Below, piece by piece: positions 42 through 64,000 of a stretch of 64,000 nt of DNA. Position 1 is the stretch's first letter. Each line of letters starts with the position of its first letter. The DNA lies in the IMG/VR virus record IMGVR_UViG_3300032311_001250, positions 14,443 to 78,442 of that record; one strand, 5' to 3'. The translations under genes and the position numbers were made by a program. The notes below the pieces were generated by a model that ran no database searches, was not told where the DNA came from, and saw only the letters and a list, made by a program, of their open reading frames with translations. Origin of the DNA: a virus.

Positions 42-3000
42 ATGCAAGGCGGAATGCTTCGTGCGCTTCTTACTAGCGAATCGCTGAGCGCAGCTGAAAA
101 GGCACGACAGATCTCCCTTCTCAGCGGAAGCATTCCCGGCATGCGAGGGGTTCCAACGAGTATCCCAGAGGGCCAGTGGCAGAAGCTTGGGAGCGGGTCA
201 TATCGCGGACCAAAAGACCTCAAGCCAGTGTACGAGTCGCTCAAGCCGCTTATTGAGCAGTATGGTGCCGCTCGAACTATGGGCTACGTTGAACTTGCCA
301 GGGGCTCTTCGCAAGGTTACGGGTATTGGGATCCAAAGAATAAAGGCCTGAATCTTTCTGGGCTTGAGGGACGAAGCTCTGGTGCAATCATGCGAACGTT
401 GGTGCACGAGCTTGCGCATGGATCATTTGGCGAGGCAATGAGGACCGGCTACAAGCAGCCTGGTCAGGTTCAGATTTATGGCCCCAAGGGTGAAAGCATG
501 GGCATGGCGCCGCATGGCGCTGCCTCTGCGCTTCTTGCCGGAGAGCCAACGAGAGTCGGCCACCTTGATCCAAAGTTCTACGAGATGCAGGCAAGGATTC
601 TTAAGTCCGAGGGCGGGCTTTTCTCATCGTTGCTGTTCCATAACTTTGCGCAGGGTGGGTCGCTCCCAGGTGGGCTTGGGTTGCAGGGCACAGGCCCAGA
701 ATATGGTATTGGAAAGCTCGCCGCTCAACTGACTCCACAGCTAGAAAAACTTGCCTCGCCTCAGCAGCTTCTAGCCGCTCAGGCATTTACAAAGACTATG
801 AACACCTTGGTAGGTGGTATTGAAGGATTTGCTAAGGGCAGGGGCAACCTCGAGCAGACCAGCAACGGCATCGCAAAGGCGTTCAGAACGCTTGGAGAAT
901 CGTCCTCTGAATTCAAGCCAGAGTTTTTGCTCGGCGGTGCCGCCCGGCTATCCAACTTCATCCGGCAAAATGGCCAAGAAGGCCTGGCAAAGATGGCCCC
1001 AGAGCAGTTGCGTGCAGGAATCGTCAACTCCATCCTGTCTACCACGACCGGCGCACTCGGTCCGGGTCGGTTGCTGGGGCCAATGTCGCAGGTCAGTGGT
1101 GTTCATGGGCAGATCTCAGAGTTCCTCAAAAATGCCAGCGAAATGGAGAAGGGCTACCTGGCCATGGCGATCAACCCGCAGGCCTTTGTTAAGGAGCCCG
1201 GGGCAAAGCCATTCTACCAGCGTGGAGATGTAGATCATCTACAGAAGGCTCAGGAAATCCTCTCAAACGTTGCGCAGGAGGCAGAACGCGCTGCAAGCGT
1301 CATCCCAGCAGCAACAAATGTTGCCGTTACGCGACGTGCCGGAATGCAGCTTCCTGTTATCAATCGAGGACGCATGCTTCCGGCAGAACACTCGGTTGTT
1401 GTTTCCGGGCAGCGCTATGGGGCCGGTGGTGGTCAGTTTGTAGAAACAACTAATAGCGCCGGAGAGACTGTTCGGCAATTTGTTCCTGCTCAGCGCCTCC
1501 CAGAGGTAACCCCTGTACAGGGACCTATGTCTGGCTCCGGAGCCCTTGTCGTCTACGACCCCCGCGTTGCTGCTCAATACGAGCAGAATAATCCACGCTT
1601 TGCCGGAAGGCCATATGGCGGTCGAGCAGAGACTCAACGCTTTACTCCGAATGCTGCTCTTCTCAACGAGGCATACATGCGCACGCTCAGCTACGGAGGA
1701 CAGGGCTTCTTCGGTCGTGTAGGGTACGAGCGCCTGACAATGCCGGCACAAGAAATTGCAAGCCGGTACGCCGGATTCCGTGGCGCTGTTGGTCAGGCCG
1801 CATACAACAGCCCCCTCAGCCCAATTGGCGGCATGATGAGCCAGTTCCGACAGGCAACAGGAACATATGCCGAGGCCGAAATGGGAAAGCAGCAGCTTCG
1901 CGCGGCGGCCCGCCAGCAATATCAAGGTCAAGTTGCCCAGGCTGATGCATTTGCCAATGCCCAGACTCGATTGAATCGTGTTCTCGGTACTGGCACCGTA
2001 AACTTCCGAGAGCTTGGCAAGGTAATGAGCGAGGTCGGAAACGGCTTTACTTCTGGAGCTCTTTCTTCGCTGAGGTTCGCTGCAAACCTTGCCATTGGAC
2101 AGCAGGCAGTGTTTGCGTTCGTCGGAATGATCAACCACCTCCGTGGCGGTATTATCGAGTTCAACGCAAAACTTGAGGCCGCTGCCGTAGGGTTTAACAC
2201 ACTCTTCCGAAACGCTGGATATACCGTCGAAGATGCGAGCGAGAAGACCAAGGCATTCATTGGCGTTCTTCGTGACTTTGCCAACGTAACAAACTTCCGA
2301 TTCGGCGACCTTGAGACCGCAGCCCTCCGCATGAAGGCATTCGGTTTCGAGGTGGATAACGTTACCGCTGCCGCAAAGAACCAGATGCCAATCCTTGAGG
2401 AAATTCCTAATCCGTGGGCAAAACTGACCGGAGAGGCTAAGAGCTTCCGTGGCGCCCTCGTCAACATCGGCGATGCAGTTGCGGCACTCGGCGCAGAAGA
2501 CGATAAACTCCGCCGTGTCACGTACGCCCTTGGCCAGATGAACTCAGCTGGTCGTGTCTATCAAAACGACATGATGCAGCTGGCAAACGCTGGTATTGCC
2601 GGATATGACATTCTTGCTAAGGCAGTTAAGAAGCAACTCGAGAATGACCCAGAGCTCATGCGCGCAAATAAGGCCATCTATAACAAGTTGCTAAACCCAA
2701 GAACTGCCGTAGAGGAGATCCGCAAACTTGCCCGCGTTGGACGACTCGTTGGACCAGAGGCCGTGCAGGCCATTCTCCAGGGCCTTGGGCAGCAGTACGG
2801 CGGCGGCATGAAGGCGTTCTCCCGTACCTTCCAAGGAGCCATGACAACTCTTGCGGATACGTCGCAATCCCTTATTGCTACCGCGTTCAAGCCACTCTTC
2901 GATGTCACCCGAGATCTTGTCGTTCAGCTTGCCGACGCCTTCCAAACATCTGAGTGGACGGGCAAGGCGGATAATGCCGCCAAGGTCATTCAGAAGGTTG

Positions 3001-6000
3001 CGGAAGCGCTCAGGTCAATGATCCCTGGAACGGCAGACACGATTATGAAGGTCCTTGGTAGCTTCTTTGAAACCTTTGCAAAACTTGGAAGCTCCCTTGG
3101 CAGTACCACAAATGGCTTGGGTAGCTTTGTTAATAACTTTGCTGCAGGAGTAAAGACCATTGGAGATCTTCTTCAAAACAGCGTGATCCGCAACCTTTTG
3201 GTGGCCGGCGTTACCGCAAAACTCGTTATGGGAACAATTGCTTCCAACCCTCTCCTGGCAACCATTGGACTCATTGTGTCTTCCATTGGGGCAATCAGTA
3301 AGGCTATTGAGACAAACGCCTTTGGCTTTGGCGACCTTGCGGCAAAGGTGCAACCTGAATTTGACAAGATCCTTGCAAATATCAGCGGAAACTTCATCCC
3401 GGGAGTAACGAGCGGCCTCTCCGACGGCCTGGGCGCGTTCTTTGCCATCATGGGGGCCTTCATCCGCGCAGTCACTCCGCTATTGGTCGCAATCCTGGAC
3501 ATCATTAGTAACGTTGGGTCTGCTATCAAGCCATTTGCCAGCGTTCTTGGCGTTGCGCTTGCGGCATTTGTTGGCAAGAAAGTCCTGATCGACGGCATGG
3601 CTGCCGCCATGGGTAAGTTTGCCGCCGCAACTGGCGCTGCCGTCGGCAGGGTCACATCGCTTAAGGAAAAGATGGCGCTGTATCAGGCGTTTGGAACCAC
3701 CGGAAGGTACTACGGTGGCGACAAGCTAATGGCGATGCAAACTATGCAGCTGGCCAATGGTCAAAGTCGAGCAGTTCTTGCCCCTGCCGAGCAGGGTGGA
3801 ATTGGTATCGGCGGACCGACTGCCGTTCGCGCAGCCCTTGCCCTGGCGAATCAATTTGCCCTCCTGCAGACCGGAGCCCCACTCCAGACTGCCGGAGTCG
3901 TTCCGCCGCAAACGGTCCTTGACAAAAAGACCGGCCGCCAGGTCGCCAACCCAATGTATCAACAGTTCCTTAATACCGCCGCATTTAATCCGCAGACAAC
4001 TCTGGCCCAGTATCAAGCAATTCGCGGCGCACGAAAAGAAGAAATTATGCAGGAGTTGGCAATTCGAAGGAACAAGTCGCTGACCCCAGAACAGCGCCAG
4101 GCTGCTCTAGCAAATGTGTCAACTGCCGGACGCCAGGCATATCGACAATTCCGTGCAGATACCGGAGGAGCTGGTTCTTCAAGCATGAAGGCCCTTGAGG
4201 CGTCATTTGCCTCAATGAGCCAGGGGATGATTGCCCAGCTCGGTCAGTTTATGGCCAAGATTCGATCCACTGGCCTCAGCTTGGAAACACTAAAGACTAT
4301 TGCCAAGGCGGTTGGATCCCGACTTGCTGGCATGGCAACTGCTGCCATGGGCATGGGCATGCTCTTTAGCGCTATCGGCGGAGCTTTGAATGTTAAGGAG
4401 CTTCAAGCAGTTGGAGATACGCTCACAACGATTGGGTTTGCAACAACAGGTTTGACCATGATGTTTAACGCCTTGACTGTAGCTGTTGGCGCTGCCGCGC
4501 TGCCGCTTATGGCGCTTATGCTTGCAATTGGCGGCCTTATCGCGTTCATCAGTGCCAGCACAACTACCGAGCAGGATAAGAAAGGCGCAAAGCAAGTAAG
4601 CGAGATTATGGATCTCCGTGATCAGATGGTTGCAATGTACGGAGAGGAAGAGGCAAAGCGCAGGTTCCCGGACTACTTCCCAGAAAATCTTACGTTGCCG
4701 GAGAAAAAGTTGCGCATGGCCCTTCCCGGTGAAACCCCAGACTCTTATGATTGGATTAACAATATCGCATTGAAACTTGATTATGACCCAAAGGATCTTG
4801 CCGCTGTCCGAAGTCAGTTCGGATTTACCGATGAGGATTTTGCAAAGACAAAAGCCTATTTTGAGATGATGAATACCGATACCGGTCGAATTCTCTCCTT
4901 GTTCCAGGAAGGAAAAACGGCCGAGCAGATTGCTGAGATTACCGGTCTACCAATTGATCGAATCAAGTTGCAGCTAAAGGAATTCTACGAGACAACTGGT
5001 TCTGACAATAAGGACTTTATTGCCAAGGTGCTTAGCGATAGCCTTGATGCAACCGGCGCTGCCCTGAAAGAAGCGCAGGAGGCTTACGAAAAGGCAATGG
5101 AGCCGTTCCAGAAGAACCTTAGCCGCCTGACTTCTCGAACCCAGGAAGTCATGCAGGCGCTCTTTGAGAGCGAGAAGAAGGCCCTGGAAGATGAGAAGAA
5201 GGCTGCGCTAGAAAATACGTTGGTAATGTACAACGGCGAGCAGGTCCGACTTGGCGTGCTGCAGCAGCAATATGATGCCATGAAGCTTCAGCGCGAAGAA
5301 ATGGACCGCATGGCCGAACTTGAGAAACAGCGCACAGCTGCCGCAGAGGCCGCGCTCAATATCTTTGACGCCAGTGTTGATCCGCTTGAGCGAGCTCGAG
5401 CGGCTCGAGAGTCCGCTCGAGATCTTTTCAATCAAGTTGGAACGTCAAGGCTTGACGAGATGCAGCGGGCGATTACCGCCGGCCAGGGGAATGTCGCCTA
5501 TACAGAAACCGAGGCATTCTACAACGAGAAGATGGATGCCCTACAAAAGGATCAGGCCGAGCGAATGCGCACGGTCCAGGAGCAAATCGACGACTTGATG
5601 CAGAAGATCAAGGAAGGCAAGATTGGGACCGCCGCCGCACAGCAGCAGTTCAAGGATATCTTTGCGCAAGCCGGTCTTGACCTCGACGTTGCCCAGACAC
5701 AAGGGTACTCGTTTATGTCAGCCTTTGGCGATGGCTTCATGGATGCGATGAACACAAATATTAAGGGCGTATTCTCCAAGCTGCCTGGACTTATCATGAA
5801 GGCGTTGGAAATGGTCAAGCAGGACAAGCTGTATCAGCAGGCCCTTGACGCCTATAACGCCATCGTCACGATGGGTGACAAGATTACTGGCAAGGAATAC
5901 AAGTCTAAGTATCTGCAGCCGCGCCTTGCTGGTTTGAACACTCTCTACAAAGATGCCGTTAAGTACCTTACCAGTGGCGAGGGCGTAAAGGCTGCCGGTG

Positions 6001-31891: not shown

Positions 31892-32767
31892 CTACCTCCT
31901 TGCGCTTAACGCGCGCTTCACTCCTGTCTCAAGATCAATCTTCGGCGTGTACACCTGCAGCATAGCAGAGATGTCCGCGACTCTCCAGTTGACGCCTTCG
32001 GGCTTATCAGTTAAAAATTGAAACTTAGGAAAATACCCCTCGGCCTTGGCAACCATCTCCCCAAGTTGCTGAAAGCTTGTGGCATGACCTGTGCCAATGT
32101 TGAGCGGCCCACGATAATCCTGCTTCACCGCCGCATCAACACAACCAACGACGTCACTGATGTGCACGAAGTCGCGGGTTTGCGTGCCGTCACCCCAGAT
32201 CACGAACGGATTTTCGCGGTTTCGTCCTCGCTCGATGAACGATGGGAACGGATAGTCCAGCGCCTGATCCTCGCCGTACCCAGAGAATGGGCGGAAGATA
32301 TGCGTCCGAACACCCTCGGCTTCGGCAAACTTGGCCAGATACTCACCGGTGAGCTTAGACCAGCCATAGGTGAGGTCTGGGTTGCGGATGTCGTCCAGGT
32401 TGATGTCGGCTTCGGTAAGCTTCTTGTGCGACTGCTTAGTTTGCAGGTGCACTGGGTAGGCCGCCGATGAGGAGAAATACACCACACGGGGCTGCTTGGT
32501 CCTAATCGCCCACTGCCACATTTCTGCGTCAATAGACAAGTCTACGGCGACGGAGAGCGGGTTGCCTTCGATCTTTGCTCGACCACCCACCACAGCGGCG
32601 AGATGAATCACCAGGTCAAACTGGGTGTGATTGGCCATCTGGAAGAACTTGCGAACATCCATACTATCGACGATATCTACGCCAAGAATCTGATGCCCCT
32701 GCTGTTCATAGAACTTATGAAAGTGCCGCCCCACAAACCCCTTGTGGCCGGTGATCAAGATGTTCAC
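31892..32767 (-). CDS. NAD-dependent sugar epimerase/dehydratase
   Basis: ILITGHKGFVG, HLAA, SSSAAY, YGWSK (YxxxK), GDGTQTRDFVH. Confidence 0.95.
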   Translation of the reverse strand: MNILITGHKGFVGRHFHKFYEQQGHQILGVDIVDSMDVRKFFQMANHTQFDLVIHLAAVVGGRAKIEGNPLSVAVDLSIDAEMWQWAIRTKQPRVVYFSSSAAYPVHLQTKQSHKKLTEADINLDDIRNPDLTYGWSKLTGEYLAKFAEAEGVRTHIFRPFSGYGEDQALDYPFPSFIERGRNRENPFVIWGDGTQTRDFVHISDVVGCVDAAVKQDYRGPLNIGTGHATSFQQLGEMVAKAEGYFPKFQFLTDKPEGVNWRVADISAMLQVYTPKIDLETGVKRALSARR

Positions 32768-33510
32768 TAGTACTCCTCCAACAAATCAAGGTCGTATTCA
32801 AAACGACCGCTTCCACCATTCAGCACCGAAAGGCCTTCGTCTGTTGGGTACCGAAAGAAATCATTTTCGTCCAGCGCCGCTCCGACATGATTGGCAGGGT
32901 TCCTGAGTTTTGTCGGAAACCGCTTTCTAACGCTTGGACGTTTCAGTTCGGTTTCAAAGTAGCTATCATGCATCATGCAGCTTCGCAGAATCTTTTCCGC
33001 CAATTTGTCTTGAACAAACAGTTCGTCTGCACCGTATGCTGGTTGCTCTCCGCGCTCCTGAATAAACATGCCCATCAGCGTCGACATGTTGCGCACCTTA
33101 TCTGCCCATCCGCTCCACATGCCGGCAGGAACGAGCTGCTTGTGATTTGGGTGATCTTTCATAACGTGAAAGTCAAGCTCGCTCTCCATCCACTCATCAT
33201 GCGCCTGGCGCTCCCGCACGGTCAGTCGAGCATCTACATCCCGGACCAGCACGATATCGACCTCTGGGTCGGCGAAAGCCAGAAAACGCCAGGCCGAAGA
33301 GAACCACCGGTTGTTTTGCGGGGACTTCTTAATCTCTACGTTTTGGTGCAGCTCAAGCGTATCGACAAGCCACTGCGGCACGTCCTCGGAAACGTAGAAT
33401 CGCACGGTGTACTCAGGGTAGATCTTCTCGGCCAGAGCGACATTCTTGAGCGCTCCGACCAGGTACTTCTGGTCTGATCCATACAGGCTGTACGAGATGA
33501 CTTGTTTCAT
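32767..33510 (-). CDS. Putative glycosyltransferase (GT-A-like)
   Basis: VISYSLYG...WRFL...VRDVDAR (DxD)...FHVMKDHPNH. Confidence 0.7.
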   Translation of the reverse strand: MKQVISYSLYGSDQKYLVGALKNVALAEKIYPEYTVRFYVSEDVPQWLVDTLELHQNVEIKKSPQNNRWFSSAWRFLAFADPEVDIVLVRDVDARLTVRERQAHDEWMESELDFHVMKDHPNHKQLVPAGMWSGWADKVRNMSTLMGMFIQERGEQPAYGADELFVQDKLAEKILRSCMMHDSYFETELKRPSVRKRFPTKLRNPANHVGAALDENDFFRYPTDEGLSVLNGGSGRFEYDLDLLEEY

Positions 33511-34178
33511 CCTTCGAGGTCGACGTTCTGAATCTTTCCGAGATCTGAGAAGAGCCTCTCCGTCAGATATTTGTGGTAGGCCTCGGAATCCTTCATGAAA
33601 ACCTCTGGCGCATTCACCTCGATGTAGCCGGCGTCGCGCTCCGCCTTGCCGTTGATGAAGTGCATATGCTCAATGATGCAGTCGGCATCATAAAAGGCGT
33701 TGCCGAGCCCTTTGCCAATCGTCAGCCAGAAATTGTCCATGTACATGTGTACAAGCTCGGGCGGAGCCATATAGCCGATTGCGCGGACAATTGACGACGA
33801 GAGCAGCACCGCAGTTGGGAGGCGCTCGCCCTGCAAAAGATCGTTCCCCCAGGCCACGCCTGGGTTTGAACCAATGCCAAGCATCAACCTGGTATCCCAC
33901 CCCTTGGTGCGCGGCCGGTGATCATCGCCCATAAACGAAAGGAACTCGTACTTGTCGGCATATTGATTTGCGATCAGGTTGAGCGTGCCGCACATGCGCA
34001 GACGTGGGTTGACTACCGACTTTGCTCGCACTTCAGCGGAATAGTCGCTGGTATCGTCATCGTCCAGCCCAAAGATAATGTCGGAGTCTTCTGCTGTGCT
34101 GTTGAACTCATGCAAAAGCTCCAGGGCCTTTTCCGGCCGGTTTCTCGTAGGAACGATAAGCAGATTCTTTTTAGTCAT
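33507..34178 (-). CDS. Family 2-like glycosyltransferase
   Basis: IVPTRNRP, FMGDDH, YMDN, IEHMH. Confidence 0.85.
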   Translation of the reverse strand: MTKKNLLIVPTRNRPEKALELLHEFNSTAEDSDIIFGLDDDDTSDYSAEVRAKSVVNPRLRMCGTLNLIANQYADKYEFLSFMGDDHRPRTKGWDTRLMLGIGSNPGVAWGNDLLQGERLPTAVLLSSSIVRAIGYMAPPELVHMYMDNFWLTIGKGLGNAFYDADCIIEHMHFINGKAERDAGYIEVNAPEVFMKDSEAYHKYLTERLFSDLGKIQNVDLEG

Positions 34179-34392
34179 GCTGAACCTTCACTTTCTGGTC
34201 AATCAACCATTGCGCTTCTCGCTCATCCAGGCGAACAAACTCGCCGGTGTCGTAGGTCTTGGGGAACTGCACCGCATACGGCTCAACGTCGCCTGGCCAC
34301 CGTGGGGCATAGACAAGAGACACGGCAAAGGAGGATGACCATAGGTACCAAATTGCCGCAGCTCGAGGGCTAGGCGGTACGTTCATTTCCAT
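34171..34392 (-). CDS. Hypothetical protein, leaderless first gene of the glycosylation operon
   Basis: TATAGT 7 nt before ATG; overlaps the GT2 gene. Confidence 0.6.
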   Translation of the reverse strand: MEMNVPPSPRAAAIWYLWSSSFAVSLVYAPRWPGDVEPYAVQFPKTYDTGEFVRLDEREAQWLIDQKVKVQHD

Positions 34393-34468
34393 GGGTAGGA
34401 CTATACCACACAGTTTGTAGATTTGTGTGAGATTGACCTTGCCGGTAACAATCTAATACTTTAGTCAT

Positions 34469-34609
34469 GCGTCACCTTCCGAACGTGGCGCGGCGCGCTG
34501 TGGCGTTACACCGCAGCTGAGGCGGGGGGTTAAGACCCGTCGGAGGGTTACGCCGGGTGGCCAAGGCACGTCGACGGACGAGCTGCCGGGCCAGCGGTGG
34601 CCCCCCGCC
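34469..34609 (+). ncRNA. Candidate pseudoknotted structured RNA or 5' leader
   Basis: Promoter TTGACC-N18-TACTTT; helix 34469-82/34540-53; hairpin 34497-517; 12-bp pseudoknot 34521-32/34598-609; hairpin 34558-93; G-U pairs favour plus strand. Confidence 0.55.
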
Positions 34610-34624
34610 AACATTGGAGGGAAC

Positions 34625-34816
34625 ATGGCACCTAAAGGAAAAACTGCGGTTAGCAAGGAGAAAAAGGCTCCGGTTATGACTGCGCGAAAGTGCACTGCAT
34701 GCGGCCAAACGATGCGTTCTGATCAAATTTCTACTGTGCTGACGGTTTCCATTGCCGACAGTGGCGCGGCAGCAAAGCGATTTTCTCACCGCCACAAGAC
34801 TTGCCCGGTGAAATGA
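34625..34816 (+). CDS. Small basic Zn-binding protein
   Basis: RBS GGAGGG; CTAC...HKTC. Confidence 0.7.
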   Translation: MAPKGKTAVSKEKKAPVMTARKCTACGQTMRSDQISTVLTVSIADSGAAAKRFSHRHKTCPVK

Positions 34817-34980
34817 TGGGCGATTATCCTCTGGAGTTTTTGGACTGGGAACAGCCACAAGGCTGTACAGAGGAGTGTTCGTTTAGCCTTGTCGAAACTG
34901 TATGCACCAGTTGCTCTACCTTGTTCATGATCTGTGAAATCCATGAATCTAGCGTAGAGGAGTGCTCGGACTGTGCCTAA
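34816..34980 (+). CDS. Acidic Cys-rich microprotein (54 aa, below cutoff)
   Basis: MGDYPLEFLDWEQPQGCTEEC...CTSC...CEIH...CSDCA; overlaps both neighbours. Confidence 0.65.
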   Translation: MGDYPLEFLDWEQPQGCTEECSFSLVETVCTSCSTLFMICEIHESSVEECSDCA

Positions 34981-35419
34981 TGTCAAACATCAAAGGAACC
35001 AGGAAATCGGCGAGCTGTTTCTCGATGGCTACACGGCAAACGAAATCGGCCGGATGTTCGGTATCAGCAAGCAGCGCGTCTCGTTCATCCTGCACAACCT
35101 GGGTATCCGGGCTGAAGAGGAGTTCACAACTGTCATCCTTCCTGAGCCATACGTGGTTGTCCTTGACTTTGGCGACCCGGCGTCTCACACGCTCCAGGGC
35201 CTGATTGAGCTGGGCTTTATTCCAAAGCCTGACGAAGTAGTTGCGTGCACAAAAGAAACTGCGCACAACACCCTGAGGTCATTTTCAAAGCTTGAACACG
35301 TTCTGGCGTACGTGCCGGTTGTTGAGGACGAAAATCTCCCCGGACGAGAGATCAGGTCAAACTGGCTGGTATATGCCTACCCGCTAAAAGAGGCTAGGCT
35401 TTCTTCTTTGCAGATTTAG
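34973..35419 (+). CDS. HTH DNA-binding protein (sigma4-like HTH)
   Basis: RNQEI...GYTANEIGRMFGISKQRVSFIL. Confidence 0.8.
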   Translation: MPNVKHQRNQEIGELFLDGYTANEIGRMFGISKQRVSFILHNLGIRAEEEFTTVILPEPYVVVLDFGDPASHTLQGLIELGFIPKPDEVVACTKETAHNTLRSFSKLEHVLAYVPVVEDENLPGREIRSNWLVYAYPLKEARLSSLQI

Positions 35420-36158
35420 ACGCCTTGTTGGCGACACTGGCATTGAAGACGAAATTTACAAATCCGGTGTGCAGGGTTGCTGCGTCAACTTTCATGCGCA
35501 GTGGAACGCCACATGCTCGTGCCAGCTGGCAGAACGATACATCTTCACCGGAGTATCCGTTTTCCTGGTCGTCCCACTCGTACTTAAAGAACTCGGTGAC
35601 CTTCCTGCCGGCTGTGCAGTAGTACTTTCGCACATCGGTCTTGTTAATGGTGTCAAGTGCCCCACGGGATACCAGCATCATGCCGGTGCCAATCCAGTCA
35701 ACCTTCACCAGGCCGTTGTCATCCGGTCGGACAATATCGCTTGTGATTGAAAAGTTTGCATCTCCAAGAAGCGCCACGATAGATTCTGCCGGAGCGTCTG
35801 GATAGTCGCGCATGAACTGAACGGCACGATCCCACTTCGGAAACTTTTTTGAGCAGGGGAAGCCAATAATTCCGTCGCCAAGCTGTGGAAGTGCGTTCAC
35901 TACATCCTCTGGTCGGAACGAGATGTCAGAGTCAACCAGCAAAGCCACATCGGCATCACTTTTGAGGAAGTCGTCCATAAGCTGGTTCCTGGCGTTAAAC
36001 AAGATTGAGTTGCCGGTCATAAAAGTGCTTCGAAGATGGACGCGCTGCATGTACAACGCATTCTTGAGCGCCATTAGTGACTGAACAAACTCAACGCTGA
36101 CCTTTCCGTCAAGCGAAGGTGTCAGCAGCATAACTGCCGGATGTTTGACGCCCGACAT
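35394..36158 (-). CDS. Glycosyltransferase-like protein (GT-A), paralog 1
   Basis: ARNQL, LVDSDI, GTGMMLV, GEDVSFC, H. Confidence 0.85.
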   Translation of the reverse strand: MSGVKHPAVMLLTPSLDGKVSVEFVQSLMALKNALYMQRVHLRSTFMTGNSILFNARNQLMDDFLKSDADVALLVDSDISFRPEDVVNALPQLGDGIIGFPCSKKFPKWDRAVQFMRDYPDAPAESIVALLGDANFSITSDIVRPDDNGLVKVDWIGTGMMLVSRGALDTINKTDVRKYYCTAGRKVTEFFKYEWDDQENGYSGEDVSFCQLARACGVPLRMKVDAATLHTGFVNFVFNASVANKASKSAKKKA

Positions 36159-36364
36159 TAGTTGACCTTCTTTCCAAAGATCGGTGCCTTTTCTACGTCA
36201 ATCTTTTCCTGCTCTTGCTTTAGGACTGACAGCAGTTGCGCAAAGTCATTCATGCCATTCTGCCAACCCTCGTGCTTGGCATCCGAAATTTTTCCGGACA
36301 TCAATGATCCGCCAACTCCAACGCCAAGAAGCAACCCAATTGCAAACGCGATGATGATTTCCAT
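36158..36364 (-). CDS. Small membrane-anchored protein
   Basis: N-terminal TM, TAATG overlaps. Confidence 0.7.
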   Translation of the reverse strand: MEIIIAFAIGLLLGVGVGGSLMSGKISDAKHEGWQNGMNDFAQLLSVLKQEQEKIDVEKAPIFGKKVN

Positions 36365-37179
36365 TACTCCTCCGATGCAAGCGCTTTGAGCGCAGCAAGA
36401 TCATACCGCAAGTTCACTTGCCCTGCGTGTGTTGAGCGACCATCGACCTTGACGTGGATCTTTCCGCCCATAGCGCGGATGTCGTCGCAGAACGTGTAGT
36501 CCTCTCCGATGAAATGATTGTCCCGACGGCCGTATCGGAAATACTCAACGGTTCGATGCGTCACGCCGCGAACATCCTCCATGTACCAGCGGTCCGGATA
36601 GGCCTTCTGATATTTCTCGAATGTTCGCCGAGCAATAATCATGGCGCCGGTTCCAGCGTGCGTTGCCTCCATGATACCGAACTCCTCGTCTTCTTTGCTG
36701 GGGGCCGGAGCATTTTTGTCCAGAATAAAGTTTGGCATGCCAATGACCGACTCGATTGCATGCGCCGGAACCTCCGGGTGTTTGCGCATCATCCCGACGC
36801 TTCGATCCCAGTCGATAGCTCGCTTCAAGCATGGAATGGCAACCACATCCTTGTTGGCAACCAGGGCCACCATTACGTCCTCCCAACGCACCGAAATATC
36901 AGCGTCCAGAAACAGCATGTGCGTCGCCTTAGTGCTGGTCATGAACTGGGCTACGCAGCGGTTCCTGGCCGCCACTAACATTGAGTTTCCCACCACAAAC
37001 GACCAGGAAAACGGGATGCCAACCGACAGGCAGGCCTGCTGAATCCCCAAAAGTGAGTGCACGTATCCATGATTTACGTTGCCGTCAATGATGGGCGTGA
37101 TCGCAAAAAGGGAGATCGGCGACTCTTGGGGGGCAAGCTTCACCTGGGGTTGCTGCTGACGGAACTTCTTCTTGGCCAT
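36364..37179 (-). CDS. Glycosyltransferase-like protein (GT-A), paralog 2 (leaderless)
   Basis: ARNRC, FLDADI, GTGAMII, GEDYTFC, H; TATGAT 6 nt before ATG. Confidence 0.85.
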   Translation of the reverse strand: MAKKKFRQQQPQVKLAPQESPISLFAITPIIDGNVNHGYVHSLLGIQQACLSVGIPFSWSFVVGNSMLVAARNRCVAQFMTSTKATHMLFLDADISVRWEDVMVALVANKDVVAIPCLKRAIDWDRSVGMMRKHPEVPAHAIESVIGMPNFILDKNAPAPSKEDEEFGIMEATHAGTGAMIIARRTFEKYQKAYPDRWYMEDVRGVTHRTVEYFRYGRRDNHFIGEDYTFCDDIRAMGGKIHVKVDGRSTHAGQVNLRYDLAALKALASEE

Positions 37180-37194
37180 GCCGGGATCATACAC

Positions 37195-37490: not shown

Positions 37491-37847
37491 ATGGACTCAA
37501 AAGAGCTGAAACTGGTGAGCCAAAAGGCCGAGTGTCTCCACTCATCGGCACTCATCCAAACACCAGACGGGTTGAAGTCGTATGGTCTTCCGGTTGACAC
37601 CGATGATTGCATGCAATGCGCATGGCGAGATTTTGAGCAGTCGGTCGGCAAGCGGGTTGAGCTCCCTTCGATGCAGATCTTCTGGTGGAATTACAGCGAC
37701 GACAAGGAACCACATTGGGTTGCCGAAATCATGCCGCTCGACTTGCTCCCGGATGTTGCGTCAATTGTTGGACGCGGGGAAACGCCCGGTAAAGCCATCC
37801 GAGATATGTCTCGTCAGCTCAGGACTTTTTTGAGTCAGCACCAATAA
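37491..37847 (+). CDS. Hypothetical protein (possible HicB-like C-terminus)
   Basis: RBS AGGAG; WVAE...GRGETPGKAI. Confidence 0.65.
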   Translation: MDSKELKLVSQKAECLHSSALIQTPDGLKSYGLPVDTDDCMQCAWRDFEQSVGKRVELPSMQIFWWNYSDDKEPHWVAEIMPLDLLPDVASIVGRGETPGKAIRDMSRQLRTFLSQHQ

Positions 37848-38040
37848 CGACGTGCGTCTCCTGAGGAATCTTCTCCTGGAATGCCCAGCCTGATCCTTTG
37901 TAGGTAATCTTTGGTGCGTTGAAGACAACGCGCATCTCGCCGTTGCATACCAGGCACAACTCCTTCGAGTCGTCGCTCATCTTGCGAACGGTCTCACGAA
38001 CGATGTCGCATTTTTCACACTTGTAGTCGTACGTTGGCAT
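37819..38040 (-). CDS. FmdB-family zinc-ribbon protein
   Basis: MPTYDYKCEKC...CLVC..EMRVVF...KGSGW. Confidence 0.88.
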   Translation of the reverse strand: MPTYDYKCEKCDIVRETVRKMSDDSKELCLVCNGEMRVVFNAPKITYKGSGWAFQEKIPQETHVVIGADSKKS

Positions 38041-38050
38041 GATTCTCCTT

Positions 38051-38122
38051 TGGTGGAGCCGGGCGGGAGTTTCACCCGCCGTTACCCTTGGGCATGATGA
38101 CCCTTGGCGTGTACGCGGCCCC
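38051..38122 (-). ncRNA. 72-nt tRNA-Ala/tmRNA tRNA-like-domain RNA
   Basis: GGGGCCG/CGGCTCC acceptor with G3-U70, A73 and encoded CCA; T arm GGCGGG-TGAAACT-CCCGCC; no D stem or canonical anticodon arm; TATAAT 14 nt upstream. Confidence 0.72.
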
Positions 38123-38138
38123 GGCAGACTATATCAGA

Positions 38139-38498
38139 TTATAGGCCGAGAGTTACCTCTCCGGGTACTGCGTTATCCCTTCGCGCCTGGTCTTCCTGGA
38201 CCTTCCATCGCTTGGCAATCTTTCGAACCGCCCACGACGAGCGGAGAAGGCTCCTAGCGCGTTCTCGCTGCATGTTGGCCCACGATTCCAGCTCTTCTGA
38301 GCTTGTGGCGATATACACGCCGGCAGGGCTGTCAGAGGCAGAGCAGATCGGCTGCTCCCAGACGTTTCGGAGCTCTTCGACGGCAAGCTGAATTGCCCTG
38401 CTATTCCATCGGGTAGTCTTGGCCAGCTCTTTGTAGGTAATAGCGTTTTCTCGACCAACACGAATCTGCGAAAGTAAATAAATTAACTCTGGACCCAT
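38139..38498 (-). CDS. HTH DNA-binding protein
   Basis: GRENAIT.KELA...R.IQ..VEELR...ICS...GVY. Confidence 0.78.
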   Translation of the reverse strand: MGPELIYLLSQIRVGRENAITYKELAKTTRWNSRAIQLAVEELRNVWEQPICSASDSPAGVYIATSSEELESWANMQRERARSLLRSSWAVRKIAKRWKVQEDQARRDNAVPGEVTLGL

Positions 38499-59070: not shown

Positions 59071-59395
59071 TCGCTCGCTCCGGCTCCGAGGCCGTCATCC
59101 CGTCGGGGGTGGCGGCCTCATCATTTCGTCAGAGCTTTTCACGGGCAACATTTCACCCCCCACACCCCCACACCCCCACACCCCCACCAATAGTTCAGGC
59201 CTCATTCATCATTCACTCATTACTCATTCACTCCTCACTCATTCCCCCCGCACCCCCACGAACTAACTAACTAACTAACTGACTGGCCGCTCGGTCGTCG
59301 TTCGGTTGGTGGCCTGTTGCGCTGTTGCCTACGCCCCGGTAAACTTGGGGTGTTCGGTGGCAATGCTCCACCGACGAGCACAGAGGAGACCAACA

Positions 59396-59779
59396 ATGGC
59401 CAAGAGTAATGAGAAGGCTACCCTCTCGGTAGTTCTCGGAGATGAGCAGGAAGGCGAGCGCAGCGGTTCGCTTTGGCAGCGGTCGGTGGTCGTTCGCCGG
59501 GATTCGGGCAATGGCGAGGTGATCCGCTATGAGGCCATCCTCTACGGTATGGCTGCGCCTGTGAACGAGGTTCATCTCTGGCAGGGTGGCGACGCCGCCC
59601 CGCTCCTCGGCGTTCTCCCTCTCGACTTCTGGGAGTGGACGACTGATGCCGAACTGATGGAGTGGGTGGCCTCGTGCTATCAGCAGAGCAGCGCGCGCTA
59701 TGAGCGCACTATCCGCAAGATGCGGACGATGGCGCGCAAGGCGTACACCGAGCAGAACGAGGAAGCCGCTCCCTTCTGA
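59396..59779 (+). CDS. Hypothetical protein (cassette)
   Basis: Promoter TTGCGC-N17-TAAACT; RBS GAGGAG. Confidence 0.78.
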   Translation: MAKSNEKATLSVVLGDEQEGERSGSLWQRSVVVRRDSGNGEVIRYEAILYGMAAPVNEVHLWQGGDAAPLLGVLPLDFWEWTTDAELMEWVASCYQQSSARYERTIRKMRTMARKAYTEQNEEAAPF

Positions 59780-59802
59780 ACGCTACCGGCGAACGGGCAA
59801 CA

Positions 59803-59836
59803 AGGCCTCACCCCTTCGGGGGTGGGGTCTTTTTGT
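59803..59836 (+). terminator. cUUCGg intrinsic terminator (similar ones near 60517, 61205, 62120, 63082)
   Basis: GC stem with CTTCGG loop and T tract after each cassette gene. Confidence 0.85.
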
Positions 59837-60180
59837 TGGTGCTATTCATCAGGCTATTATTCACCCCGTACCCCAGACCCCACACCCCAGACCCCAAGAA
59901 CTAGGCCACTCCGTCCGTCGTTCCATTCGGTCGCAGCTCGACGCTCGCCGGGATTCGGTCAGCGTCATTCATCATTCACCAGTTCATCATTCACTCATTC
60001 ATCATTCATTCATCATTACCCCTTACCCCACACCCCACGAACTACTTCTCTCTACTCTCTCTTCTCTCTCTCTTCTCTCTCCCTTCTCTCTCCTCTATGG
60101 TTCGGACTTGCGCTGACCGCGACCGGCCGCGTATACTTCGGGTGCCGGCAGTTGCCGGTGGCACAGAGAGGAGAAGACAG

Positions 60181-60492
60181 ATGACGGACACGGAGAAGAC
60201 GCTCTGGCTGGTCGAGGTGGTCTGGGAGAACGAGACGCACCGCTCGTGGCACGCTGGCCGGTCAGAGGCAACGGCAGCCCTGATTGCGCTGGCTTCGGAG
60301 TTGGCGGCGTACAACGCCGACACCGCCGACGATGCGCGGGAGTTCCTGCTCGATGACGAGCGTTCAGCCTGGGTTGATTGCACCGAGACGACGACCTCGG
60401 GCGTTTGCCCTAAGTGCGACGCGATGGCTGGCTGGACTGGCTCCTATTGCGAGCCGTGCGGCTACGAGTTCGGGGAGAGCCTCGACGACTAG
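60181..60492 (+). CDS. Hypothetical protein with C-terminal Zn ribbon (cassette)
   Basis: Promoter TTGCGC-N18-TATACT; CPKC...CEPCG. Confidence 0.78.
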   Translation: MTDTEKTLWLVEVVWENETHRSWHAGRSEATAALIALASELAAYNADTADDAREFLLDDERSAWVDCTETTTSGVCPKCDAMAGWTGSYCEPCGYEFGESLDD

Positions 60493-60821
60493 CCGCTGAC
60501 CGCTACCGGCCGCAATGAAGCCCTGCCCCTTCGGGGGTGGGGCTTCTTGTTGCCCGTAAACCGGCTCAGGGGCAATGGTTCGCGTCGCGCTGCGCGCTCT
60601 TGGTTGTGGCCGGTCGCGGTCATCATTCATTAGTCCAACATCATCAGTCATCATTCATCATTCATTACCCCACACCCCATTACCCCTAGCCCCAAGAGCT
60701 AACAAACTAAAGAATAGATTCCTGGACTCGGTCAGCATTCGCTTGCGCTGTTGCCCACTACCGGCTACACTCAACTCCTCGGACGCTATGCTCGGCCGAG
60801 TAGCACAGAAAGGGGAACGCT

Positions 60822-61178
60822 ATGTGGCGTTTCTTGGTCTTCGTACCTAAGCCCGACACCGGTAGCGGTCAGCGGGTCAATCTGGCGAGTGGGTGGTCGT
60901 ATGACGAAACCGAGGCCGACACCTTTGGTGATGTGATGCCCACCCTGCGCGGAATGATTCAGGCGGTCTACGCCGTCATTGAGATTGACTCGGTTCGTGA
61001 GTTCGGCCCTGAGTCCGACTCCGAGGAACCCGCTCCTGCTTGGGCTGTTGAGGTGATGACCGAGGCCGGGGTTGCTGGCCTGAACGGCTCGTGGGTTGAG
61101 TTGGACGGAAAGCCGTTGGCCTTCGTCGTAGCCGTAGAGGAGCCACGGAAGGTCTGGCCGACACACTTTGAGAGGTAG
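60822..61178 (+). CDS. Hypothetical protein (cassette)
   Basis: Promoter TTGCGC-N17-TACACT; RBS AAGGGG. Confidence 0.75.
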   Translation: MWRFLVFVPKPDTGSGQRVNLASGWSYDETEADTFGDVMPTLRGMIQAVYAVIEIDSVREFGPESDSEEPAPAWAVEVMTEAGVAGLNGSWVELDGKPLAFVVAVEEPRKVWPTHFER

Positions 61179-61610
61179 TCCTCTCCGGCTGAGGGCAACT
61201 GAGGCCACCCTCACCCTTCGGGGTGGGGGTGGTTTCTTTATGGCCTCACTCATCACCCCTTACCCCTTACCCCTCAGGCCTTACCCCGTACCCCTTACCC
61301 CACAAACTTCTAGGTGTTCTGGTATAGGCCTACTCGTTTCCGTGCCTCTCCGTCGTTCCTACGGGGTCGTTTCTCATGTAGCTTTGAGAATCTCAGCACC
61401 GGTAGCGGTCATCATTCATCAGTTCTCATTCATCAGGTCATCATTATCAGGCCATTACTTCGGGCGTACCCCTAGCCCCACGGACTACGACTTCATATGT
61501 GGTTCGGTCGTTGCGTCTGGTGCGTCGGGCTTGACGCTGCCCATGTCTCGATGTACTCTCTCGGTGTTGGGGTTGTCGGCACAGACCCGCCCTGACGAAA
61601 GGAGCGCCCT

Positions 61611-62096
61611 ATGGATAGGGAGAAGAACCAGCAGCGGCTCGTCGAGGTACGGGCAGCAATCGCAGCGGTCAATGAGTCGCTGACCGCTGAGGAGTTCGGT
61701 GATGCGGCACAGATGAACAGCGAGATGGGCGGCAATGCTCACCTCGTCGTGGTGCCAGCGGCGTTCTGGAATGACCATGTGTATCGCGACTGCGATTTGG
61801 ACTCGGTCGAGGTGCGGTCATCGGCTGCCGATTGGAGCAACGACGACGGCTCCTATGTCGTCTTGGTGATGACCGACGACTTCCTGATGGAGTTGGTCTC
61901 TGACGCTGCCCACTACTCGAACGGCTGGGGTGAGGACTACGAGCCCCTGATGGAGTCGGCACGCCGCGCCATCGTGGCGCTCTGGGAGCAGAAGCCCGCC
62001 ATCATGAAGGCTGACGCTGACGCTCGGGCGAGCCGCGACAATCTCCGCTGGTCGCTCGGCATTCAGCGCGATGATGTGGCGGTGATCACGGGCTAA
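61611..62096 (+). CDS. Hypothetical protein (cassette)
   Basis: Promoter TTGACG-N17-TACTCT; FWNDH..RD...ELVSDA.HY. Confidence 0.8.
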   Translation: MDREKNQQRLVEVRAAIAAVNESLTAEEFGDAAQMNSEMGGNAHLVVVPAAFWNDHVYRDCDLDSVEVRSSAADWSNDDGSYVVLVMTDDFLMELVSDAAHYSNGWGEDYEPLMESARRAIVALWEQKPAIMKADADARASRDNLRWSLGIQRDDVAVITG

Positions 62097-62594
62097 CCTT
62101 CGTCGAGCCTCGGGCAACAGGAACCCGCTCCCCTTCGGGGGGGCGGGTTTCTTGTTGGGTTGTGTCTGGTCATCGTGAAGGCCTTCACCCCTGACCCCGA
62201 ACGCTGACCGTTCATCGACATCATCACTATTGGTTCACTCATCATTCATCATCTACCCCTTACCCCTTACCCCTCACCCCACCATTTACCCCTTACCCCA
62301 CGAACTAGGACTCGTTCTCCGGCAAGAGTCAACCTTCGGGCTGCTCTGTCGAGACTCGGTCAATGAGCGCGGAGCTTCTTTTTCAGCCCTCATTCATCAT
62401 TCATCATCATTCATCATTCATCATCATCATTACCCCTCACCCCACGAACAAAGGGCCAAAGGCGGGCAATGTCGATGCGCGGGCAGCGTTGCGTCTGGCG
62501 GTTCGGGCTTGCGCTCTGGCTTCGGTGGGTGTATCTTTCTGGTGTCGGGAGCACAGAGGAAGCCACTAGGCGACCGCCCGACAGGGAGAACCAA

Positions 62595-63059
62595 ATGGGT
62601 ATGACCTACGAGGAAGCTCTGGAAGCCGCCAAGAAGTCCGCAGGGAAGGTGGTTGTCCTGACCTACTGGACTAAGCCGGCTACTGAGGCGGAGCGCACGC
62701 GCCGCATTGCCTCTGCCTCGATGCGACAGGCGGAGCACAAGGCTCTCGGTCGCGTCAAGACCGAGGCGGTCGCTGAGTCGGGTTCGGTACTGGTTCGCGT
62801 GGCTGGGCAGATCAACCGCGACGAGCACGCTCTCGGTGTCTGGGTCAATAAGAAGGGCGAGCCTTCGCTCTCGCTCGTCATCTCCGCGCCGACGGAGTAC
62901 GGCTACACGACCGCTTGCGCCTACGCTGGGAAGGCTGGGAGTGCGTGCGAGAATCGTCGTCCGTTCCACGCTCATCGTGGCGTGAACCTGACGCGGCTCG
63001 TGTCGTGGCTCATCGCAGGAGAGGAGCAGGTCAAGGCGGAGCCGCAGCTCGGCTGCTAG
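62595..63059 (+). CDS. Hypothetical protein (cassette), paralog of 58579-59070
   Basis: Promoter TTGCGC-N17-TATCTT; shared SAPTEYG.TTAC.YAG..GSACE.R..FH.HR.VNLTRLVSW. Confidence 0.85.
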   Translation: MGMTYEEALEAAKKSAGKVVVLTYWTKPATEAERTRRIASASMRQAEHKALGRVKTEAVAESGSVLVRVAGQINRDEHALGVWVNKKGEPSLSLVISAPTEYGYTTACAYAGKAGSACENRRPFHAHRGVNLTRLVSWLIAGEEQVKAEPQLGC

Positions 63060-63395
63060 TCGGTAGCCTTCGGGCGCAAGAATCCCGCTCCCCTTCGGGG
63101 GGCGGGTTTTTTGTTGGTTGCCTTTGTCTCGATTTTTCTGATTCACCCCTTCACCCCTTCACCCCTTACCCCACGGATTCACTCACTCATCACTCATTCA
63201 TCATTCACCTATTCACTCATTCATCATTCACTCGCTACCCCTGACCCCACGAACTAATGGGTAGGTAGGCACCGGTTGTGGGCAGCGTTCGGGGTCGGCC
63301 TCGCCTGAGCTTCCCTCTTGACTCCTGCCGTGGTTGCGGTATTCTCTATGTGTCGGGGGCAGGCACAGACCCGAACCGACGAAGGGAGAAACAAG

Positions 63396-63928: not shown

Positions 63929-64000
63929 TGGCTCCGGAGGTAGGGCTCGAACCTACGACCAGGCGATTAACAGTCGCCCGCTCTACCACTGAGCTACTCC
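63929..64000 (-). tRNA. trnN: tRNA-Asn(GTT), about 3 nt of the 5' end lie beyond the window
   Basis: GGAGTAGCTCAGTGGTAGAGC-GGGCGA-CTGTTAA-TCGCC-TGGTC-GTAGG-TTCGAGC-CCTAC-CTCCGGAGCCA. Confidence 0.95.

Follow-up and report, generated by a model that had tools for sequence, protein, structure and literature searches.

tRNA-like RNAs without a message

Genes for tRNAs can be co-transcribed with mRNAs located downstream, as found in E. coli for metY-nusA-infB and thrU-tufB. The alanine minihelix, composed of acceptor and T arm, is a substrate of alanyl-tRNA synthetase (AlaRS). In tmRNA, whose tRNA-like domain has established conserved features, the G3-U70 pair is the AlaRS determinant and the D-loop region contacts SmpB extensively (PMC3985003). 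Mycobacteriophage DS6A codes for a tmRNA that has the tRNA-like domain only and lacks a coding sequence (PMC4131195, PMC11915505; tmRNA Website tmID 11587). Such a tRNA-like-domain-only RNA inhibits tmRNA in E. coli (PMC4131195, PMC11915505). The general T-loop consensus (YGNRA)NY is found also in the terminal loops of FMN and cobalamin riboswitches (bioRxiv 10.1101/2022.12.26.521914).

The 72-nt element described here resembles the DS6A RNA and other ~80-nt phage mini-tmRNAs in being phage-encoded and message-less, in its size (70-80 nt), in its identical acceptor (G3-U70, A73), in the hairpin placed between the acceptor 5' strand and the T arm, and in the Shine-Dalgarno sequence (SD) and ORF that often lie close downstream of these RNAs. 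It differs from them by the absence of the GG...CGAC motif, by a T stem of 6 bp and by a UGNAA instead of a UUCRA loop; it also lies outside a tRNA array and has its own promoter, apparently placed for initiation at G1. The acceptor, discriminator and five acceptor-proximal T-stem pairs are identical to those of phage tRNA-Ala genes found by the same pattern, which share also the CCA, and to those of mini-tmRNAs including DS6A. In the element, acceptor and T stem are stacked directly, a feature of tRNA-Ala and the alanine minihelix as well, while D arm, anticodon arm and anticodon of tRNA-Ala are missing, the helix has 13 bp and T-loop positions 55 and 56 are changed. The order of promoter, tRNA-shaped RNA, SD and ORF in one putative transcript recalls metY-nusA-infB and thrU-tufB, where, in contrast, the tRNA is canonical and a processed spacer precedes the ORF. 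The likeness to the FMN and cobalamin riboswitches is confined to the loop motif (a 7-nt terminal loop with UGNRA followed by NY), with no sequence or Rfam match.

The element and its predicted fold

The window, i.e. the whole stretch of 64,000 nucleotides analysed, corresponds to the final 64 kb of an IMG/VR virus record of 78.4 kb with ~90% completeness. The source virus is a tailed phage that encodes a tape-measure protein, a large terminase subunit and a protease. The public runs containing this DNA are exclusively freshwater and lake DNA metagenomes, with no RNA run among them. The sequence quoted in the preliminary description is present letter for letter on the minus strand (38122-38051, 72 nt). 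Its minimum free energy (MFE) and centroid folds agree and have the following parts:

38116-38122, minus strand: acceptor stem 5' strand (G1-G7), pairing with 38061-38055, invariant in eight variants; G1 is the probable transcription start
38109-38115, minus strand: single-stranded linker of 7 nt at the D-arm position; positions 8, 10 and 12 vary (the most variable part of the element), G9, A11 and A13 are invariant
38084-38108, minus strand: irregular middle hairpin with an invariant loop, based on the predicted fold and pair changes
38081-38083, minus strand: AAC junction ahead of the T-like arm; its final AC is invariant across the wider family and aligns to mini-tmRNA GGAC in the covariance model
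38062-38080, minus strand: T-like arm with a 6-bp stem and a 7-nt UGNAA-type loop, paired in every member; 4 of 6 pairs have compensatory changes (13 family members)
38055-38061, minus strand: acceptor stem 3' strand, including U70, which directly abuts the T stem and contains CUCC, complementary to the downstream SD
38051-38054, minus strand: discriminator A73 and encoded CCA, invariant in all relatives

The folds recover the architecture that had been read from the letters, namely the 7-bp acceptor with G3-U70, A73 and encoded CCA ending in a single-stranded ACCA tail, the 6-bp T stem with its 7-nt loop, the short irregular middle hairpin, and a single-stranded linker where a D stem would stand. 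The T loop had been called non-canonical. The tRNA-type UUCRA is indeed absent, yet the loop fits the general T-loop consensus: in the clade variants it is UGAAACU or UGUAACU, the first five bases conforming to UGNRA and the final two to NY, as judged from sequence. The stacked helix from the CCA end to the loop has 13 bp, and the middle hairpin loop has 6 or 8 nt in the predicted folds.

The fold energy is ordinary for the composition (z = -1.55; 16 of 200 shuffles are equally stable). The window contains a single tRNA-Ala-type end pattern where 0.02 are expected, an excess that is unconvincing if many windows are scanned. Since both indications are weak alone, the reality of the element rests on its conservation. 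An 8-mer complementary to the invariant middle-hairpin loop, as an antisense target would carry, is found only at chance frequency. A small ORF in the hairpin (AUG at position 28) was rejected, its stop codon being lost in most relatives and an SD being absent.

Putative promoter and transcription unit

The neighbourhood of the element includes these features:

38151-38156, minus strand: weak -35-like hexamer, putatively functional, that falls in the final codons of the upstream ORF; 17 nt separate it from the -10 in all relatives
38128-38136, minus strand: extended -10-like element TGnTATAGT (TGn + TATAGT); T, G and hexamer are invariant in all relatives, n being any of the four bases
38139-38498, minus strand: upstream ORF of 119 aa (phrog_2113) with an invariant C-terminal peptide
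38045-38049, minus strand: SD of the zinc-ribbon gene, single-stranded in the predicted fold when the transcript starts at G1
37819-38040, minus strand: zinc-ribbon gene of 73 aa (FmdB-like, Zn_ribbon_8; Pfam PF09723 at 1.8e-10), the sole gene downstream in the unit
37491-37847, plus strand: convergent ORF closing the transcription unit, with codon periodicity 0.25/0.18/0.45

A TATAAT had been noted 14 nt upstream of the element. The distance is actually 15 nt (38143-38138), and this sequence overlaps the stop codon of the upstream ORF; it was rejected as promoter because it is not conserved in relatives. The extended -10 motif ends 5-6 nt ahead of G1 (5 nt here), which is thus the sixth or seventh base after it. 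At sequence level, the locus has the attributes of a sigma-70 extended -10 promoter (TGn and a TATAAT-like hexamer, with the start 6-8 nt downstream), a position that fits initiation at or beside G1. The motif at 38136-38128 was not picked up by a simple -35/-10 scan of the window. The -35-like hexamer overlaps the coding sequence for the invariant C-terminal peptide of the upstream protein, which has other homologues at 66-71% identity. The same extended -10 motif is found on the minus strand at 34408-34400, 7 nt before an ATG at 34392, and suggests a leaderless mRNA for the 73-aa ORF 34392-34171.

The SD was correctly reported to follow directly: it starts 2 nt past the CCA, an arrangement found in every relative with no terminator between. 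The zinc-ribbon gene varies by 0.08/0.04/0.33 at the three codon positions. Codon periodicity supports that the convergent ORF, which overlaps the zinc-ribbon 3' end by 29 nt and has no Pfam match, is a real gene. Because this plus-strand gene closes the unit, the latter is limited to the element and the zinc-ribbon gene. A role as leader of the downstream sugar-modification operon was rejected, as the convergent gene and a separate promoter intervene. This minus-strand cassette (31892-37194, with its own sigma-70-like promoter at 37214-37186) codes for two phrog_1574 proteins, a glycosyltransferase-like protein and an NAD-dependent epimerase/dehydratase.

The location 5' of an mRNA makes a cis role a serious rival that was absent from the first reading. 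The element could be a 5' leader only, whose tRNA-like fold is never released or charged and which protects or regulates the zinc-ribbon mRNA; this is a possible reading, held clearly below even likelihood. At the same level of belief, the leader is modelled as a switch in which the formed acceptor would lock CUCC and leave the SD free, while in read-through or unfolded RNA CUCC would pair with the SD and block translation; the balance between the two states could be moved by a protein, by RNase P or by a small ligand. Such a role agrees with the fixed SD distance and missing terminator, and with the two-part unit shut by the convergent gene. It agrees also with folding predictions, in which the transcript started at G1 has a free SD and the read-through transcript pairs CUCC with it. 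However, the MFE prediction that shows this alternative fold has a low frequency in the ensemble (0.0065), and complementarity between CUCC and GGAG is automatic in any tRNA-Ala-type acceptor. The three-way junction, riboswitch-type T loop and invariant loops resemble a small aptamer, but no cis-regulatory RNA or riboswitch family of Rfam 15 matches the element. A leader function is further favoured by the presence of the same promoter type directly ahead of another ORF in this phage. It leaves unexplained, however, the exact match to tRNA-Ala in acceptor, discriminator and CCA.

The preliminary description had also considered the RNA as alanine donor for envelope modification. This idea finds no partner enzyme among the 59 ORFs of the window, which encode no SmpB, CCA enzyme, Fem-type transferase or RNA ligase.

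Two other features of the window are recorded here. A tRNA-Asn gene (63929-64000, minus strand) is cut by the record end and GC rises to ~0.60 over the last 8 kb; they may represent a phage tRNA or a provirus border. The 13-nt motif CATTCATCATTCA is present in 18 copies (at most 2 mismatches) on the plus strand at 59200-63230, where 1.6 are expected; the copies are concentrated in spacers that separate small genes, and a 9-mer of the invariant middle-hairpin loop is found in two of them.

Conservation in a clade of freshwater phages

Protein-guided and pattern searches identified the same element in ~20 IMG/VR and metagenome contigs of one freshwater phage clade, in which contigs with a readable element have flanking proteins at least 83% identical. 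Among 11 haplotypes of a 692-nt stretch, the mean pairwise difference within the element is 0.055, compared to 0.39 and 0.34 at the third codon positions of the two flanking genes and 0.04 at second positions. The element is thus 6-7 times more conserved than synonymous sites of the same genomes and evolves about as slowly as second codon positions, a sequence pattern that indicates strong purifying selection at the nucleotide level.

Eight different 72-nt variants occur, and 93.8% of the proposed pairs are kept in them. Two compensatory pair changes and several G-C to G-U replacements among them are consistent with an RNA of the minus strand only, every wobble substitution being G-U in that sense. 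In the middle hairpin, G20-C33 is A-U in two variants, one contig (L016) gains a G-C at 18/35, and wobble pairs occur at 17/36 and 21/32. The acceptor stem is constant in all eight variants, and provides therefore no covariation information on its pairing or on G3-U70. Linker position 12 and T-loop position 3 are U/A in three variants, A/U in two, C/A in one and A/A in two, which is suggestive of a tertiary pair without being significant. G3-U70 and CCA, whose conservation in homologues had been set as a check, are unchanged throughout the clade, and ACCA is invariant even in two contigs (L269, L270) in which the 3'-adjacent base differs.

Beyond the clade, no comparable element was found upstream of distant zinc-ribbon homologues in ~50 other phage contigs, which speaks against a leader role. 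In one contig (L275) with a 31%-identical homologue of the upstream ORF, the next gene directly adjoins and the element is absent. A metagenome scan contributed nothing beyond close relatives and a single distant locus, which lacks the element. A 721-nt region used as query found no similar DNA in 50,697 records of cultured phages. In cellular genomes the middle-hairpin pattern had no match, and the T-loop-plus-acceptor pattern gave only chance coding matches among the 120 matches listed (of at least 120).

A full tRNA or tmRNA at this site in relatives would have identified the element as a decayed copy. All relatives carry the same 72-nt form, distant relatives have nothing there, and the element is therefore not such a copy. 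In a wider version of this idea, it would be a functionless tRNA-Ala or mini-tmRNA remnant, or a DNA-level site (an attachment or recombination scar bordering an acquired gene), that persists in a young clade. Confinement to one clade of closely related phages and absence from distant relatives are compatible with this scenario, and 3' ends of tRNA and tmRNA genes are common integration sites (PMC11915505). Yet neither low divergence relative to synonymous sites nor compensatory and wobble changes in one strand sense is expected from it, both acceptor strands are present though an att core does not need them, and the promoter motif is co-conserved at a fixed spacing. The remnant or DNA-site reading is already disfavoured and is considered very improbable. 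The comparisons support a clade-specific, selected and strand-specific RNA that would carry an alanine-type acceptor arm and no message.

Relation to tmRNA and tRNA

A partial tmRNA or pseudo-tRNA match had been expected at the element. Searches with ARAGORN and Rfam gave nothing there: the tmRNA, mt-tmRNA and tRNA families (RF00023, RF02544, RF00005) have no match in 401 nt at gathering score or E <= 10, and ARAGORN reports in the window only the tRNA-Asn at its end. RNAs of ~80 nt with the same acceptor in IMG/VR contigs do match RF00023 end to end, above the gathering score.

The element has the tmRNA acceptor (7 bp, G3-U70, discriminator A, 3' CCA). It lacks the tRNA-type T arm, with a 5-bp stem and UUCRANY loop, its own stem of 6 bp being supported by covariation. 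The D-loop analogue (GG...CGAC, ~12-14 nt) is also absent, the corresponding 7-nt linker being variable and without the motif. There is no canonical cloverleaf, as D arm, anticodon arm and 7-nt anticodon loop are missing. The hairpin occupies the position of helix 2a, between D analogue and T arm, and is poorly aligned by R1, a covariance model built from seven ~80-nt phage mini-tmRNAs. R1 scores are the following:

DS6A RNA: 58.8 bits
other mini-tmRNA-like RNAs: 44-60 bits
97-nt RNA of the L282 type: 34.6 bits, above all controls
76-nt RNA of the L137 type: 29.7 bits
clade elements: 23-28 bits
window element: 24.9 bits
34 chance coding matches with identical acceptor halves: 15-27.7 bits

Because the score of the window element falls inside the range of the chance controls, no tmRNA signal is detectable beyond the acceptor. 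From the initial proposal of a message-less tmRNA-like RNA, the lack of a message and the alanine-type acceptor stand, and a phage class of this kind exists; identity with the tRNA-like domain of tmRNA is unsupported, in view of the 24.9 bits and of the missing Rfam match. The proposal of a decoy for SmpB and trans-translation is left without its defining element, the deformed D-loop gripped by SmpB.

The element might still be an extreme but genuine tmRNA reduced to its tRNA-like domain, able to bind SmpB and to block or bypass trans-translation in the manner suggested for DS6A. In its acceptor arm it does not differ from DS6A and other phage mini-tmRNAs, the hairpin is at the helix 2a exit, 'AC' precedes the T stem as in tmRNA, intermediates at 30-35 bits exist, and the inhibition of tmRNA in E. 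coli by a tRNA-like-domain-only RNA gives this activity a precedent. These points are opposed by the replacement of the D-loop analogue by seven variable nucleotides, by the absence of U55 and C56 from the T loop and the 6-bp T stem, and by the covariance and Rfam results, making this identity improbable.

Related RNAs in other phages

Pattern scans reveal RNAs of 46-97 nt in unrelated phage contigs that share with the element the T stem and the acceptor (the acceptor identity of non-clade members is imposed by the search patterns) and differ in the middle. These sister RNAs have 97 nt (L282, L286, L296, L302), 89 nt (L162), 76 nt (L137, L147) or 46 nt, the last (L073) being a bare minihelix. 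The 6-bp T stem is paired in all 13 family sequences, with compensatory changes at four pairs, while the middle hairpin of the sister RNAs is different and longer. The L282-type and L073 RNAs stand alone and are followed by terminator-like hairpins, which gives them the look of discrete RNA genes; why stand-alone RNAs should be headed by this acceptor and T stem is left unexplained by a leader role only. With its score of 34.6 bits on R1, L282 appears to bridge the family of the element to the mini-tmRNA class.

Several mini-tmRNA-like RNAs elsewhere in phages have an SD and a small ORF within 0-10 nt downstream. Very small K/R-rich ORFs of two recurring types directly follow the RNAs at L137 4831-4906, L129 558-633, L090 10494-10574 and L099 187-266, and this RNA-protein pairing may be conserved. 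Contig L098 has tandem mini-tmRNA-like genes (2973-3053 and 3055-3119; 44.1 and 51.6 bits on R1). Contigs with mini-tmRNA-like RNAs hold also a group I intron, a type II hammerhead, a sub-threshold manA RNA and an array of ~20 tRNAs (loci L162 5914-6130; L182 2716-2781; L069 7004-7179 and 2558-6426).

Dozens of unrelated IMG/VR contigs (L303-L341) also contain this 19-nt T-arm hairpin in identical form, its 6-bp GC stem closing a loop of UGCAACU or UGAAACU, a recurrence counted without a baseline for the same GC stems under other loops. Examples are L306 1286-1304, L316 9164-9182, L303 1330-1348, L317 1701-1719 and L319 2394-2412. Copies are often enclosed by another outer stem of 5-7 bp, with 8-18 nt of linker on the 5' side and no CCA; others are plain intergenic hairpins, and none of the copies in these contigs is in Rfam. 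Because the same hairpin exists under unrelated outer stems without CCA, the fold of the element need not imply a tRNA function.

A candidate tRNA-Ala-derived minihelix

The best explanation is that the element specifies a minihelix derived from tRNA-Ala, a predicted RNA species released as a non-decoding mimic of an alanine acceptor; this is proposed tentatively, at a little under even likelihood from the sequence data. The sigma-70-type extended -10 promoter would direct transcription from G1 or a neighbouring base. The acceptor carries the full alanine identity set (G1-C72, G2-C71, G3-U70, G4-C69, A73 and CCA) and would stack coaxially on the 6-bp T-like arm with its T-loop motif, D and anticodon arms being replaced by the 7-nt linker and the hairpin. 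The RNA would be unable to decode, as it has neither anticodon nor message, and could present the tRNA parts read by RNase P, AlaRS, the CCA enzyme and EF-Tu. It would be made as the 5' part of the zinc-ribbon transcript, of which a fraction is most likely cut at the CCA end, like tRNAs co-transcribed with mRNAs. The freed RNA may then act as a non-decoding alanine-acceptor mimic, comparable to what was proposed for phage mini-tmRNAs, and would be a member of a loosely defined group of phage RNAs (46-97 nt), alike in acceptor and T stem, that grades into tRNA-like-domain-only tmRNAs.

The invariant ACCA, compensatory changes in the minus-strand sense only, the fixed promoter spacing and the sister RNA genes count for the minihelix reading, as does, by analogy, the parallel arrangement of mini-tmRNA-like RNAs closely followed by SD and ORF. 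The ordinary fold energy, the missing matches to tmRNA and tRNA models and the constant acceptor count against it. RNase P and other tRNA 'rulers' expect a 12-bp helix, and the 13 bp of the element weigh on the same side. Trimming to the CCA would moreover compete with use of the mRNA, because there is no terminator and the SD is 2 nt past the CCA.

A broader version of the minihelix proposal, regarded as unlikely, unites the element and its 46-97-nt sisters in an SmpB-independent family of phage 'alanine minihelix' RNAs that would combine a tRNA-Ala acceptor with a 6-bp T arm and a riboswitch-type T loop, be charged by the host AlaRS, and interfere with host translation quality control or, in this phage, work as a tRNA mimic in cis. 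In the cis variant, folding, processing or charging would decide whether the adjacent SD is usable.

Significance

Phage RNAs reduced to the alanine-accepting end of tmRNA, with one published case, are proving common, and the element widens their range: it retains the full alanine identity set and CCA while the SmpB-binding region and a tRNA-type T loop are missing. In addition, it has its own promoter and is joined to an mRNA. Present tRNA and tmRNA finders overlook such derived forms, as this element shows. If the RNA is charged and released, SmpB titration would not be the sole mode of action for RNAs of this kind; if it acts in cis, it would provide a case from a bacterial virus of a tRNA mimic serving as mRNA leader.
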